Assembly: GCA_965205675.1 (NCBI GenBank)
Contig: OZ242186.1
Location: 800,001-864,000 of the forward strand
From: Nitrosopumilus sp.
GTDB lineage: Archaea; Thermoproteota; Nitrososphaeria; Nitrososphaerales; Nitrosopumilaceae
DNA: 64,000 nt
Direction: 5' to 3'
Positions 13,018 through 18,973 of this stretch are shown piece after piece. Numbering within the stretch: position 1 is the stretch's first letter; each line of letters opens with the position of its first letter. The notes below the pieces were generated by a model. The model saw only the letters and a program-made list of their open reading frames with translations. It did not search any database and had not been told where the DNA came from. The position numbers were made by a program, and so were the translations under genes.

Positions 13018-13565
13018 GAGGGTAAGCCTCCCAAGTTATCTGAAAAGTGTATGTATGCTACCGGTCCTACTCTAGAGGGGACCAGACCAATACCATTAAT
13101 CACAAGAATCCCGGACCAGAATTTGCACCATTTGCCAAGAATCTCAAGAAAATAATTTATGACTCTCATGGTGTGGCAAAAATAAAATCAGAATCAGAAA
13201 GAATCCATGCAAAAAAGAATCTTGAAAGGAGAATTAATCACATCATATCAAAAAAATACACAGAGAAAAACTGTATCAGGTTTGTAAAAAGATTGAAACG
13301 TGAGAGAAAAATGCTTTTTACATTCCTAATTACTGGAACTGATTCACACAATAACACAGCAGAGAGGGCAATCAGACCAAATGTGATAATTCGTAAAATT
13401 ACAAACGGTCATAGAACCATTCATGGTGCTGATTCTCATAAGATACTGATGAGTATAAAGGAGACATGCAGATTACGAGGATTAAACTTTCATGATTATT
13501 CTTTAGAATATCTTGGAGATTTTACTTCAAAACTCTAGACAGTTACAATTTTTTTAGTATTTAAT

Positions 13566-14351
13566 TCATCTTAAAATCCTCCAATACATCAAAATTGATG
13601 CAAGGTAAACAAATCCCAGATAATTCTCACAGTTCTTTTCATATCTGATTGCAGTTCTATGAAAACCCCACTTGAGCCATGCAAATCTCTCTACAACAAA
13701 TCTTGTTTTGTTGTAATTTTTCAGATATGGTGTATTTGGAATTACTCCTGTATGTGATACAACAACTCATTCCATTCCATAACATCTCAAATAATTTCTG
13801 ATGTATTTTGCATCGTATCCCTTGCCTGCATATGCTGAGATAATCTGCGGCATCAAACCATCATTTAAAAAATCTGAAATGTTTTCTAACACATCAATGA
13901 ATCTTGTACTATCATGTTCATTTGCAGAAACTCATTATCATTGAAATTGGCAGACCATTTGATTCAACTGCAAATGTACTTTTGTTCCTAGAATCTTCTT
14001 AAATCCATCATATCCTATTTCATCTCCCCTTTTTTGACAGCAATAGATGAAGAATCAATTGAAATCTTTTGCAAGTTGATTTTTCCTTGTCTGTGTGCCA
14101 ATTTAATCAGATTTGACAGAATTTTTTTTCCATATTCCTTTTTGCTGCAGTTCTGAAAATCTGAGACGTGCAGTAGATTTTGAACCGTATTGTATAGGCA
14201 TGTCTGCCCATCTGCAACCCGTAGTCAAGACAAACAATATTCCGTTAATTGTGCTTCTGTCATCACATCTTGGACGTCCTGTTCTTGCCGGTTTTGGTAA
14301 ATGCTTTACAATGGTCTTCTATTGAATATCTGAAATTTCTTTATGAATCAT
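13566..14351 (-). pseudogene. IS5 family (IS427/IS1031-like, DUF4096 + DDE) transposase pseudogene
   Basis: MIHKEISDIQ*KTIVKHLPKPARTGRPRCDDRSTINGILFVLTTGCRWADMP...IDSSSI; in-frame stop and frameshifts; probable end GTTTTAGGATGAGTTGC near 14415-14431. Confidence 0.85.
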
Positions 14352-14577
14352 GTAAAAGATTTGAGGGTATTATTGTTAGATCTATATTACCATCAAATGT
14401 TTACAAAATGATCTGTTTTAGGATGAGTTGCTAATCCATCACCTCCAACTTTGTTTATCGTTATTAACGTATGTGATGATGTTTTCATCGCATCAAATAT
14501 TATTATAAAAATGAATTATTTTTGAATAAAAATATTCTTGGTGTCAAGCTTAAATTGGGCAATTTTCTGGTTTTACT

Positions 14578-14654
14578 GGGATCGTGGTCTAGCTTGGTAT
14601 GATTCTGCGTTTGGGACGCAGAGGTCGCGAATTCAAATTTCGCCGATCCCACCA
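14578..14654 (+). tRNA. tRNA-Pro(TGG)
   Basis: GGGATCG/CGATCCC acceptor, CTGCG-TTTGGGA-CGCAG anticodon arm, GCGAA-TTCAAAT-TTCGC T arm, CCA. Confidence 0.95.
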
Positions 14655-15089
14655 CTCAAATATAAAAAAGCTATTGTATAACACAACTAGATAATTTTTC
14701 TTACAGTTCACACTAGTGAAATATTGAATTAATCCTCATGTGATGACCTACAAATATTCCATGTTGAATCATTTAATCTAGTTATCTTGCCAAATCCCAA
14801 ACCTGTCAAACCAAATATTATAGATCAATATCTGAGTTTTGCAACAAATATCAAAAGCGCAGAGATATCAAAAAACATTTGGCAAATCCAGGACCAGTAT
14901 CGCAGAAGGTGGGAATAGAGACAGGTTATGCATGTGTTGGTAAATTCAGACCAAGGACATGCAGTGTTAATCCGACTGTCCTGTTTTTGTATTTTTTCTA
15001 TCTTTTGATTTTGTTTAACACATGGATTATTGCAAATTGTACGTTGGGAAATATTTGTTCCATCAATCACACAAATCCAATAACTATAT

Positions 15090-16203
15090 GTGAATAAGAA
15101 AGCAAGGAAATCAGATAGCATAAAAAATGAATCTAGTTCCAAGGTTCGTAAATACTCGGCTCCAAAAAAGATTACAAACAAACAGATTAGGAAGAAACCA
15201 AAGAAAGGCATGTTTGTGGGCATTGACCTGCACAAGAAGTTTCTTCAAGTAATAAATGGATGATGCAGGCAAAGTATTACAAAATGACAAAGTGGATAAC
15301 ACTCATGAATCTATCAGGAAGCATTTTGCAAAAATACCAATTTCTGCAAATATTGTAATGGAATCCTCATCAGTCTGGTATGACACGTATCGATTTCTCA
15401 CAGATACTTTGGGATACAAAAACGTCACACTCTCAAACCCATATTTGACAAAGGCAATTGCTACATCAAAAAAGAAAACAGACAAGATTGATGCCAAGAT
15501 ATTGGCAGATCTTTTACGAGGAGGATACATTGCCACATGTTATGTTCCAGACAAAAAGATTGTACAACAAAGACAGCTTGTAAGATATAGGAAAAAACTA
15601 ATCCAATGGAGAACATCTGTCAAGAATTCAGTTCATGGAATATTGTTACAGGAAGGAATCAGGATTCCAGGAGTTACATTCACTGAAACATACAACAGAA
15701 GACTCAAGGCACTAGGAGATTACAGAATAGACGGATTCTTGCAACAAATCAGCCACCTTAATTTACAGATTGCAGAGATTAATTCCAAAGTGTATGCTGC
15801 TGTAAAAGTTAATCCTGATGCAATTTTGATAAACTCGATTCCGGGAATTGGGCATTATTCTTCGCTTGTCATTGCATCAGAGATTGCAGATATTGAGAGA
15901 TTCAATGATTCTCACAAACTGTGTGCATATGCAGGAGTTGTACCATCAGTTAGAAACTCTGCAGATACAATACACCATGGCAGAATAACAAAAAGGGGAA
16001 GCATGACATTGAGATGGGTTCTAACAGAATGCATACACACTCATGCAATTCATGCCAAGGATAGTGACATTACAAAATTTTACAATCGCATTAAAAAGAA
16101 AAGAGGATCATCCAAAGCTGCAGTAGCTGGTGCATCAAAGATCCTGAGGGTGATTTATTGGATGTTAAAGGAGAGGAGAGAATTTGTACAAAATTATAGT
16201 TAG
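15090..16203 (+). pseudogene. IS110 DEDD recombinase/transposase with one frameshift near 15250
   Basis: MFVGIDLHK (ATG 15210; same frame open from GTG 15090) lies in a different frame from VMESS, KTDKIDA, SIPGIG and AYAGVVPSVRNSA..ITKRG (ORF 15256-16203). Confidence 0.88.
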
Positions 16204-16360
16204 GACTGCAAGTCGCGTTGTAATTATTGAGGGACAAGGCCTCGTCTAATAACTGCGAACAATCCTAACTAGGATGAAGATAGCATTGAGAGAATAGTCT
16301 CGTATGGATACATGTCCGCATCTTTTGATTGAAACCATTCTCTAGCGAAAGCCATGCCCT
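16197..16360 (+). ncRNA. Candidate IS110 bridge/seek RNA
   Basis: 9-bp stem TAGTTAGGA/TCCTAACTA; two parallel stem-internal loop-hairpin modules whose loop strands match the rebuilt target and partly the donor junction; RNA ends are inferred. Confidence 0.7.
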
Positions 16361-16910
16361 GATGTATAGAAAGAGAGGAAATGTATAAAAACAATTCACA
16401 TGGATAATTACAATTGAGATCCTCAAGTGTATCTTTGAAATTACTATTGTTGATTTCTTTAGGAGAATAAAATCAGAATAATATTTGGAAGATGCCGGGT
16501 AATTACTTTCCCAAGTACTGGTATACGAATCAAGTAAAAATGATTGGCAATGATGAAGCCGTAACAATCATACCTGTGGGAAGCAGAGATGGTGTATTAT
16601 TACTTTCTAGCTATCTGAGCCAATCATTTTCTTTCTTACTTGGTTCTATTTTAATTTTCAAGAGGTTTCATATACGAATCAAAGGAAATTTGAAGAAAAA
16701 CAAATCATAGAAAGACAGTTCTATTTTTGTGGCTCTGGCATTCATTTTAGATAGATGAATGTCTTTACATCAGATACAATGATATCTTGGTTTGTAGAAG
16801 ATCTGCATTTCTGCTTTCTGTAGCCTGTACAGAACGATTGATATTATTACTTATTTGAGACTTGGGCATAATGATTTACAAAAATAAAATCTAATTTCAT
16901 TCTAAATTCT

Positions 16911-17855
16911 CTAACAGCAAAGCATTCTCTTTACAGTTCTTGGATTTTCTGCTCCAATTATACAGTTGTAATATACTGTCAACTGATACACCAACACACA
17001 AACCAACACAAATGATTTCACGTTGTCAAATCCTTTCACATGTACAGTTCTAATGTTGAACGTATCTTTGAATATTTCAAATAAAGGTTCAATTGAAACT
17101 TTTCTTTGTAAGTATAACTCTTGACCTTGTACAGAATTATAAAAATCTGCAAGTTTGATTCGCTCTGGTGGTGTTGATGGATATATTTTGATAGGACAAA
17201 TCAATCTCAAATGTCTCTCATCACTAAACTGATATAATGATTTATCATCATATGCTGGATCACATAAAATATTCTCAACCAGTCCTGAAAGCGGTTCAAC
17301 TATTGTATAATACATTTTACCATCAGAAACATTTGCAGTTGAGACATCAGCAGATAGTGGAACAACCAGTTTGCCAGTACTGCAACTCATATGCAGTTTG
17401 TACCCAAATACCCAACCCTTTGATTTTGAAAAACCCCATTTTGCATCTGTGTCAATTCCTGAGATTGGAATTCTATTCTTTTTCATATCTGACTTGTGCC
17501 ATACTGGACCATCTGCTTTTAGCATGGAACTATCCACTGATGCAGATATGTCATCGACTAGTTTCTCTGATACAAACAGACTTCCCATATTACTGATTAT
17601 ATCACCAATTGGCAGAACTTGGAATCTCCTGTCAATGGTTCTTCTGTTTGGAATTTGAGCTAGTCTGCAAACCTTGAGCAATTTATCATTGGTACCTCTA
17701 GTCGAAAGGAAATAATGTAATGTATTGTTGCTTGGAATTCTCATCCATGACTTTATGATGAACAGCTGTACCATCAGAATTGTAGAGTATACGTACGGTC
17801 TACCAGGTTTCAGTATCTCCTCATACAAAGACAACATTCCCACCAAATGTAACAT
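16911..17855 (-). CDS. DDE transposase (DDE_Tnp_1-like)
   Basis: VDSSML, DTDAKWG..KGWVFGYKLH, CDPAYD, R.SIEPLF; 5' end cut off from its upstream region by the nested IS. Confidence 0.88.
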   Translation of the reverse strand: MLHLVGMLSLYEEILKPGRPYVYSTILMVQLFIIKSWMRIPSNNTLHYFLSTRGTNDKLLKVCRLAQIPNRRTIDRRFQVLPIGDIISNMGSLFVSEKLVDDISASVDSSMLKADGPVWHKSDMKKNRIPISGIDTDAKWGFSKSKGWVFGYKLHMSCSTGKLVVPLSADVSTANVSDGKMYYTIVEPLSGLVENILCDPAYDDKSLYQFSDERHLRLICPIKIYPSTPPERIKLADFYNSVQGQELYLQRKVSIEPLFEIFKDTFNIRTVHVKGFDNVKSFVLVCVLVYQLTVYYNCIIGAENPRTVKRMLCC

Positions 17856-17902: not shown

Positions 17903-18973
17903 AGACCTCTTGCGTAATTAGACATATTTTACCATATTACACAAATTCCTTCACAGCAAGATCCAAAGCTAAGAACAACTTAACACATTTCATGTTAACA
18001 TACAAGCAACTCTCAAAAAAGCCAAAATCCCTTCTCTCTTTTACTGGAGTGACTAGGCAACAGTTTGATGTGATTCTAAAGGATGTCAGAAAGAATCACC
18101 GTATAGAAGAAAAGAAGAGACTATCCAAAGCAAAGAGAAAAAGAAGTATCGGAGCTGGGCGAAAGTTTGATTTGAGTCTTGAAGACCAGCTTGTAATGTT
18201 GTTTGTTTACTATCGGATGTACCTGACATGTGAATTGACAGGATATCTGTTTGGATTAGACCAGAGCAACGTCTACAGAAACATCAGATATTTAGAGCCT
18301 GCAGTAAGAAAAACAGTTCCTATTCCTGCAAAACTATACTCTGATTCTAAAAAAATAAATGTTGTACAGCAACTCCAACTGTTCTTTCCTGAATTAATTG
18401 CAATGACTGATGGTACTGAACAACCAATCCCAAGACCCCAGAACAAAAAGAAAAGAAAGACTCACTATTCAGGCAAAAAAACACACAATAAAAAACCAAA
18501 CACCGTAAACCAGAAAGGTGAGATAATCCACAAACCCCCACATTCTTCAGGTAACATGATTATGCCATACTGAAAATCAGACATCCAGAACTGCCCGAAG
18601 ATGTGATGATATTTTATGACATTGGGTATTTGGGAGTGGAAAAAGATTTCCCAGAACAGACAAGCATTCTACCATACAAGAAAAAGAAAGGAAAAAAACT
18701 GACCATACATCAAAAGGAATGGAACAAGATACAGTCAAGAATCCGAATAAAAGTAGAACATATTATCTCTCAAATCAAAAAGTTTAGGATTAATTTTGAG
18801 ACATTTAGGAACAGATTGTGCAGGTATGATGCAATAAGTGATATCGTATGTGGAATTGTGAATTTCAAGACAAGATGGAAGCAAGAGTTTGCTGTGATTC
18901 CATAAGATTAGAAATTATTTGAAATTAAATTCAATGAAAGATAAGATTTTGTTTGTAATTACGCAAGAGGTCT
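17903..18973 (+). mobile_element. IS5 family ISL2-group (DDE_Tnp_4) element, copy A
   Basis: 18-bp TIRs AGACCTCTTGCGTAATTA; 3-bp TSD ATT (17900-02, 18974-76). Confidence 0.9.
17992..18905 (+). pseudogene. ISL2-group transposase, frameshifted
   Basis: LSLEDQL...YYR.Y.T..L.GYLFG, DGTEQPI.RP, HYSGKK, DIGYLG, R..VEH.I..IK.F spread over different frames. Confidence 0.88.

Follow-up and report, generated by a model that had tools for sequence, protein, structure and literature searches.

An archaeal IS1111-type element with a putative two-loop bridge RNA whose guides covary with insertion sites and element ends

In the IS110 family of mobile elements, RNA guidance of a DEDD recombinase is illustrated by IS621, whose bridge RNA has an internal loop for the target and another for the donor; each offers one strand to each DNA strand, and both cover a short core (PMC11208160; PDB 8wt6). 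Elements of the IS1111 group, as described for ISEc11, ISPa11, ISKpn4 and ISPst6, combine a recombinase of about 330 aa with sub-terminal repeats of 7-17 bp that carry extensions and a longer non-coding end downstream of the gene, and each subgroup has its own target; in their seekRNAs the stretch that complements the top strand precedes, on the 5' side, the one that complements the bottom strand, with an overlap between them in the target (PMC11187229, PMC11208160). Among the IS1111 entries of ISfinder, 93% have a predicted bridge RNA (PMC11208160). Experimental proof of RNA-guided recombination by IS110 and IS1111 elements has so far come from bacterial elements only. Here, a 64,000-nucleotide stretch of DNA from Nitrosopumilus sp. 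(contig OZ242186.1; hereafter the window) is considered, in which positions 15084-16407 of the + strand are occupied by a 1324-bp element of IS1111 type within the IS110 family, termed ISA. Read from its sequence and that of its relatives, this copy of ISA, frameshifted and non-autonomous, very probably encodes a two-loop bridge RNA (seekRNA) that would guide recombination.

Archaeal members of the family have been catalogued before: 662 homologues of IS110 recombinases have been counted, for which several transfers from bacteria are the proposed origin (bioRxiv 10.1101/2024.06.21.599552), and the ISfinder survey includes haloarchaeal entries (PMC11187229). In the literature searched, a bridge RNA from an archaeal element is neither described nor tested in any paper, the supplements to PMC11208160 and PMC11187229, whose tables may list archaeal entries, lying outside that search; this agrees with the original prediction for this locus, which took the characterised examples to be bacterial. 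ISA shares with the IS1111 elements named above the guide order and the target overlap, the size of the recombinase, the sub-terminal repeats with extensions, the downstream non-coding region and the division into subfamilies that each have their own target (PMC11187229, PMC11208160). Unlike those characterised elements, which are bacterial, it resides in an archaeon of Nitrosopumilaceae type, and no Rfam family matches its stretch. A further difference is that the motif G-x-x-P-x-x-x-x-S is followed by A in ISA and by G or T-G in IS1111 elements (PMC11187229). From IS621, with which it shares the two internal loops, the assignment of one loop strand to each DNA strand and the coverage of a short core, ISA differs in that the RNA of IS621 is located upstream of the gene, in the left end, has the reverse guide order and serves a CT core, where that of ISA is probably TA (PMC11208160). 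Finally, ISPpu9 of Pseudomonas putida likewise has a small-RNA gene, Ssr9, downstream of its IS110-family transposase gene as well as extra solo copies of the RNA gene, just as the genome studied here has copies of the non-coding region that lack a complete transposase gene; it differs in its bacterial host and its REP targets (PMC12288879).

The genome to which the window belongs (G000, a single contig of 2.01 Mb) contains ten full-length ISA copies that are 98-100% identical, and the ends of the element were set by comparing them. With ^ marking the junction, the left side reads AAATCCA-ATAA^CTATATGTG, with ATAA at 15080-15083, and the right side CACATGG-ATAA^TTACAATT, with ATAA at 16404-16407. 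Just inside lie the two sub-terminal inverted repeats, ATGTGAAT at 15088-15095 and ATTCACAT at 16394-16401, the first preceded by the extension CTAT (15084-15087) and the second followed by GGATAA (16402-16407). At 8 bp with short extensions, these repeats are within the IS1111 range, whereas those of the IS110 group span 2-3 bp only (PMC11187229, PMC11208160). Together with the non-coding region of 204 nt downstream of the gene (16204-16407), against 126 nt upstream of its ATG at 15210, they correspond to the IS1111-type architecture. ATAA occurs at both junctions and once in the empty site, and there is no classical target-site duplication of the sort that staggered cuts produce, as is characteristic of IS110 elements; the shared junction letters shrink to ATA and TA in other element classes.

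The original prediction had excised 15084-16407 on paper and claimed that this rebuilt an empty site and restored the reading frame of an ISH3 transposase. Two host paralogues in the same genome (1159230^1159231 and ~1629545) are uninterrupted and read ...cacacaaatccaataa^ttacaattga..., and since both run through aaatccaataa^ttacaattga, the rebuilt empty site is real. The interrupted frame matches an ISH3-family transposase at its C-terminus (NF033541, positions 233-296 of the 298 in the profile, 54 bits), the score staying under the full-length cut-off because the host open reading frame (ORF) is a fragment. Contigs from four public DNA runs were also compared over window positions 14300-17200, and those from two runs omit exactly 1324 bases (15079 to 16404, four letters being ambiguous). 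Their 8-18 differences from the window show that they originate in paralogues or relatives, and they are not independent of the paralogue evidence.

A bridge RNA, transcribed in the sense of the transposase gene, is most likely encoded by the 204 nt that follow the stop codon and reach to the right end. Two modules and a 9-bp outer stem had been described in this region and read exactly as written, all on the + strand. The target-binding module (16197-16271) is enclosed by the outer stem (16197-16205 with 16263-16271), inside which module 1 (16214-16257) is formed by a closing stem (CGCG 16214-16217 with UGCG 16254-16257) and a hairpin (GAGG 16229-16232 with CCUC 16240-16243); all three helices show compensatory changes. 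The donor-binding module, module 2 (16272-16317), has the closing stem GGAUG 16272-16276 with UGUCC 16313-16317 and the hairpin GAGA 16288-16291 with UCUC 16298-16301. Beside this closing stem the window copy bears one substitution, which turns a G-U pair into G-C, and one 1-nt deletion. In a plain MAFFT alignment of 26 sequences, 97.2% of cells in the five helices are paired, compared with 31-47% when the partners are slid by 1-3 columns, and 8 of the 25 pairs show both-sided changes, compared with 0-3 when slid. A model-fitted alignment of 57 distinct sequences gives 97.7% paired cells and both-sided changes in 17/25 pairs (2-5 slid); as a fitted alignment leans toward its own structure, the plain one is the cleaner test. 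Homologues have kept the fold with its two internal loops through such changes, the behaviour proposed as a check and that of a bridge RNA or seekRNA. G-U pairs are frequent, which assigns the fold to the + strand, the sense of the recombinase gene.

A third small conserved hairpin, TAGC-GAAA-GCCA with a GNRA-like loop (16343-16354, + strand), stands downstream of both guide modules in the alignment, where alifold pairs columns 185-186 with 191-192. A kink-turn formed from the invariant GGAUGAAGAU at the start of module 2 was also considered, an idea prompted by the proposed link between IS110 recombinases and Nop5 (bioRxiv 10.1101/2024.06.21.599552), and was rejected by eye, as the opposite strand does not provide the tandem G-A/A-G pairs. 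A covariance model built on the plain 26-sequence alignment has its matches immediately after the recombinase gene, and these extend to homologues with as little as 44% protein identity. It gives only weak matches at the Thermoplasmatales loci L090 and L092 (E = 0.04-0.1) and none in the bacterial homologues L100, L102 and L107-L110 (31-34% identity) or in L094. Downstream of the recombinase in L087, L100, L102, L107 and L110, one archaeal and the others bacterial homologues of 31-44% identity, the sequence ..GGCCCGAATAGG.. is found. It resembles the 3' strand CCUCGAAUAGAUA of the donor loop, so that the RNA type may reach bacterial relatives, though the model missed the bacterial loci.

Module 1 carries the sequences that correspond to the target. 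Its 5' guide TTGTAATTATT (16218-16228) is complementary to the top strand of core and right target, AATAATTACAA, while its 3' guide GTCTAATAA (16244-16252) has the same sense as left target and core and pairs with the bottom strand. As originally read, the rebuilt target, when reverse-complemented, is identical to the 12-mer TTGTAATTATTG (16218-16229), and this 12-mer occurs once in the window where shuffles lead one to expect 0.05 occurrences; GTCTAATAA differs from the other target half, ATCCAATAA, by wobbles only. The ISA target reads TCCAATAATTACAA. All ten copies have TTA(C/T)A on the right flank (TTACAA 3, TTACAT 3, TTACAG 2, TTATAG 2), and the five solo copies have (C/T/G)AATAA on the left, as TCCAATAA in three, TCTAATAA in one and ATGAATAA in one, the single TCTAATAA matching eight letters of the 3' guide exactly. 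Because several copies, on a reading of their flanks, sit in diverged copies of other repeats, these amount to at least six distinct contexts and not to ten.

Across subfamilies the guides vary widely, and their variation follows the flanks. A survey covered the elements of this genome and 80 loci from other genomes, taking as 5' guide the letters from closing stem to hairpin, as 3' guide those from hairpin to closing stem and as flanks the 14 letters outside each end; the score was the longest run of letters shared by a guide and its own flank, and the null was obtained by permuting the pairings of guide classes. The 5' guide scores 5.98 against the right flank (permuted, 3.51 +/- 0.19; 30 classes, 67 instances) and the 3' guide 6.25 against the left flank (permuted, 3.74 +/- 0.23; 21 classes, 54 instances), and 0 of 20000 permutations were as high for either. 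An earlier, narrower set had given 7.03 vs 4.03 for the 5' guide and 5.99 vs 3.80 for the 3' guide. The own guide is the best or joint best for its flanks in 18/30 5'-guide and 15/21 3'-guide classes. Individual loci illustrate the agreement: the reverse complement of the 5' guide and the junction read AACAATCATAA and GGAT-ACAATCATAA in L043, AACATACAAAA and GGAT-ACATACAAAA in L058, and AAGTTGTCTGA and AGAT-AGTTGTCTG in L096, and in L042 the 3' guide and the left flank are both GGTTGATAA. Covariation of loop 1 with the target across copies and homologues, which had been called for, is therefore found with either guide.

Such matches could in principle be coincidental, the recombinase finding target and ends by protein-DNA contacts alone and the downstream region being a 3' untranslated region or terminator whose resemblances stem from chance or A/T composition. 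The genome is indeed A/T-rich, all targets share TAA, the fold of a single sequence is not significant and some classes fit their flanks poorly. Against this stand the exact 12-mer, for which 0.05 occurrences are expected in 64 kb, and the persistence of the signal once the constant letters are removed, when the 5' guide still scores 5.42 vs 3.20 and the 3' guide 3.76 vs 2.64 with 0/20000 permutations as high for each. Moreover, loop letters change along with the element ends, and the helices keep pairing by compensatory changes. Protein contacts alone are a most improbable explanation for this combination.

The dependence on the element ends is seen in loop 2. Its 5' strand contains ATAG (16280-16283), complementary to the left-end CTAT, and its 3' strand, GTATGGATA (16302-16310), matches the right-end ATGGAT; the match of TATGGATA to donor CATGGATA with one wobble, as originally described, is correct. 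For the second donor strand only the weak ATAG match had been noted, and it proves to be real. Found at a constant distance from the hairpin, this 4-mer complements the four letters with which the left end begins, being ATAG with CTAT in 37 distinct instances, ATGG with CCAT in 12, ATGA with TCAT in 2 and ACGG with CCGT in 1, so that the rule holds for 52/54 distinct instances over four states. The right end covaries with the donor loop as well: its 6-mer, in three states (ATGGAT, ATAGAT or ATAGGT), is present in the 3' strand in 64/67 instances, the exceptions being L040, which has a 1-nt guide deletion, and L088 and L089, in which the flank begins at the sixth letter. The two common left-end states and the two common right-end states occur in all four combinations, which indicates that the two strands track the ends independently. 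The proposed covariation of loop 2 with the donor, as expected of a bridge RNA or seekRNA, is thereby present on both sides. One recombinant element (L013, G000 754379-755529) combines an ISB-like 5' part and left end, ISB being a sister element described below, with a non-coding region that is ISA-like. The 5' guide of this recombinant reads TTGAAATTTAT; the flank on its right is ATAA^TTTCAGTG, and that on its left, GGTCTAATAA, matches the 3' guide in 9/9 letters.

Guide sequences need not act as RNA. In IS200/IS605 elements, sub-terminal guide sequences pair as DNA, and a folded single strand of the right end of ISA could pair with the target in like manner; covariation of the loops with flanks and ends would be equally expected of a DNA guide. 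DEDD recombinases of this family have solved structures (PDB 8wt6, 9t56), and in such complexes they work on double-stranded substrates. In its two-loop architecture and its guide order the region agrees with the published RNAs, and the protein family is one for which RNA guides have been shown in vitro and in cells (PMC11208160, PMC11187229). A DNA guide is thus very improbable here, and the bridge RNA is the better account of the loops. A compact RNA-guided recombination system in a thaumarchaeote, as first claimed, is supported by the covariation, the fold and the guide order, and all sequence statements made in that connection are correct on direct reading.

By analogy with the known systems, the two loop 1 guides together would direct insertion into (T)TC(C/T)AATAA^TTACA-like sites, while loop 2 would pair with the joined ends of the excised element, ...CACATGGA-TA-ACTATATGTG..., its 3' strand holding the right-end ATGGAT and four letters of its 5' strand complementing the left-end CTAT. 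A DEDD recombinase, supplied in trans by the two of ten copies that are intact, would then exchange strands at a short core, probably TA. In taking the guide to act as RNA, a circle to be the donor and the strand-exchange chemistry to apply, we infer from IS621 and ISEc11. As for the core, the letters shared by left product, right product and donor are ATAA in ISA, ATA in ISB, for which the target is known, and TA in the L043 class. Their intersection points to the TA of CACATGGA-TA-AC(T/C)ATATGTG, so that the crossover would probably fall inside ATAA, at TA.

Several observations weigh against this account. Measured from the right end, the 5' guide has a register that varies by 0, 1 or 2 nt between classes, so that the half-site spacing is not constant, and as the registers disagree the position of the core stays provisional. 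In the L044 class (loci L044-L055, L057, L084 and L101, all from one Nitrosopumilus assembly) the register even shifts by 1 nt internally, its 15 right junctions being AGA^TTGATTCATA in 7, AGA^TGATTCATA in 6, AGA^TGATACATA in 1 and unrelated in 1; with one extra T in 7 junctions and none in 6, the half-site spacing seems tolerant by 1 nt. The own guide is not the best for the flanks in 12/30 5'-guide and 6/21 3'-guide classes, and L060, L068, L083 and L085 fit poorly on one or both sides. Two instances, L077 and the recombinant element in L013, break the left-end rule. Pairing of the 5' strand of the donor loop extends over 4-5 nt only and is not contiguous with the core, a short match that fits the discontiguous pairing of the right donor guide in IS621 (PMC11208160). 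Folding of the region, another check that had been suggested, gave a divided result: the minimum-energy fold of 16190-16407 recovers the outer stem, module 1 and the hairpin of module 2, but its energy is not below that of shuffles (z = -0.97, 40/200 shuffles as good). A search of 14000-17500 with Rfam 15 at a permissive threshold placed nothing on the non-coding region, its matches being a tRNA and chance-level snoRNAs only. Lastly, a frameshift leaves the window copy unable to make its own recombinase.

The transposase gene, with its DEDD_Tnp_IS110 and Transposase_20 domains, spans 15210-16203 on the + strand and is broken by a 2-nt deletion near 15251-15255 that is common to 8/10 ISA copies. 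Translation from the ATG at 15210 (MFVGIDLHKK...) meets a stop at 15261-15263, and the remainder forms an ORF at 15256-16203; the predicted first catalytic aspartate, which lies upstream of the frameshift, is split from the rest of the protein. The window ORF has the domains of the family (the N-terminal DEDD RuvC-like PF01548, 70 bits; the C-terminal PF02371, 75.8 bits), and an intact paralogue scores 89.3 and 75.7 bits, respectively. Intact ORFs of 331 aa are found in 2/10 copies, at G000 615805-617131 and 1108050-1109376. The intact protein matches NF033542, 'IS110 family RNA-guided transposase', with 229 bits (cut-off 140; profile 1-342 of 343). In a sequence alignment, GIDLHK, VMESSS and KTDKIDA fall on FIGIDVSK, CMEATS and KTDAVDA of ISCro4, and the serine of GVVPSVRNSA can be read in the protein. 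IS621 and ISCro4, both of the IS110 group and the only references compared, have solved recombinases to which that of ISA is distantly related; its nearest homologues outside this genome are in assemblies of Nitrosopumilus, Cenarchaeum and other Nitrosopumilaceae.

With most copies frameshifted, the family could be extinct in this genome, a fossil whose guides agree with their flanks as a record of past activity while nothing moves today. Besides the 8/10 broken ISA copies, the ISB-type copies are apparently frameshifted too, many fragments are present, and no joint of right end to left end, the mark of a circle, appears among the contigs of the four DNA runs, which drop rare forms and are uninformative on this point either way. 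Two ISA copies, however, retain an intact ORF, the copies are 98-100% identical over 1324 bp where host repeats have diverged to 85-97%, and a related type, ISC, has three full-length copies with intact 333-aa ORFs, its fourth being truncated at the 5' end. That the family is extinct in this genome is accordingly judged unlikely, though less so than the two alternatives discussed above.

The RNA model matches 30 places in the genome, which scores and positions assign to the ISA type (12), the ISC type (4), the ISB type (9) and other variants; some of them are without a complete transposase gene. Among 150 other sampled genomes of the same family it matches 18, in 8/27 genera, a patchy occurrence as expected of a mobile element. 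ISB, with about 60% protein identity to ISA, has 9 copies in the genome, at 39-40, 62-63, 442, 571, 929, 953-954, 997, 1503 and 1667 kb. In tblastn all ISB-type copies match the query in overlapping pieces (residues 1-90 and 73-312), which suggests a frameshift. Each of the nine runs directly into the left end of another element, of ISA type in 8 cases and of ISC type in 1, with the junction CACATGGAT^ATGTGAATAA, and ..TAAC(T/C)ATAA precedes 8/8 copies with a readable left end. The flanks of ISB are therefore the left junction of its relatives, and its uninterrupted target is known. The ISB guides match this target: the 5' guide (reverse complement AATGTGAAAA) corresponds to the sub-terminal repeat ATGTGAA of the relatives and the 3' guide GAAACTATAA to AACTATA, which includes their left extension; the corresponding guide of another genome (L096), AATGTGAATA, has nine letters matched. 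The left end of ISB itself, CCATATGTGCC, differs from the repeat that is targeted. Insertion of ISB removes the four letters read by the donor loop of its victim, and 5/10 ISA copies are so affected. ISB resembles a known IS1111-type element that targets the end of another mobile element; it differs in targeting its own close relatives, whose ends lie a few letters apart, which results in head-to-tail arrays. At ~62.5 kb the left flank of ISB reads AACTATAACCATAA, which suggests three nested insertions.

The right end holds a further conserved feature. An A/T-rich octamer, TATAAAAA in ISA (16384-16391, + strand), lies 22 nt before the T of the right-end GGAT (16405), and an octamer of this kind stands 20-22 nt before the right end in 37/37 distinct contexts (loci L004-L097). 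A regular expression called 30 of the 37, and the other 7, which read CTTATAAG, TTTATTAA or TTATATAA at the same place, were called by eye; the octamer is kept also in loci of 58-61% GC. Its composition and position make it a candidate archaeal TATA box that faces outward and, in ISA, occupies the position expected of a bacterial junction promoter. Once the element is circular, transcription from it would begin near the junction and run toward the recombinase gene and the RNA beyond. The corresponding junction promoter of bacterial elements is split into -35 and -10 parts.

Taken together, the octamer and ISB allow a tentative, somewhat doubtful reading in which bridge-RNA recombination has been adapted to archaea, with an outward TATA-type promoter in the right end and sibling elements reprogrammed against each other. 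A complete TATA-type promoter 20-22 nt inside the right end would replace the split bacterial one and fire across the circle junction into the transposase gene and then the bridge RNA. The target loop of ISB appears set to the left sub-terminal repeat of ISA- and ISC-type elements, so that ISB would land only inside relatives, cutting off the four letters read by their donor loop and building head-to-tail arrays. If this is true, ISB would be an insertion sequence that parasitises or silences its own kin by RNA guidance. Neither the outward TATA-type promoter nor kin targeting appears to have been described for bacterial systems.

For the understanding of the family as a whole little changes. 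The NCBI model NF033542, which the intact copy passes, is already named for RNA guidance, a known family trait, and specialists would expect such RNAs in archaeal members. What the locus and its relatives add is an unusually clean natural series from one archaeal family, from which the base-pairing rules of an IS1111-type RNA may be read without experiment. In it, 30 classes of target guide come with the sites at which their elements are inserted, the donor ends take four states on the left and three on the right, and every helix shows compensatory changes. The series also supplies ready-made test cases in which guide, target and donor belong together. Genetic tools for ammonia-oxidising archaea are still lacking (PMC11897584), and a recombinase suited to their transcription machinery and growth temperature would be a sensible starting point for one; if active, the system would give these organisms a native programmable recombinase.

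The surroundings of ISA are crowded with other transposase genes and fragments. A tRNA gene (14578-14651, + strand; RF00005, 58 bits) lies directly upstream of the ISH3 fragment that hosts ISA. Also present are a C-terminal piece of an IS66-family transposase (13047-13538, + strand), a DDE_Tnp_1 transposase of 314 aa (16911-17855, - strand) and an HTH_Tnp_4/DDE_Tnp_4 piece (17992-18573, + strand). Elsewhere in the genome, the first of the two empty paralogous sites is adjoined by a tandem repeat (locus L021 2944-3293, G000 ~1159350-1159700), whose minus strand codes for a repeated peptide rich in lysine (AKKKTTSKKSP...), C-terminal in a coiled-coil-like ORF.

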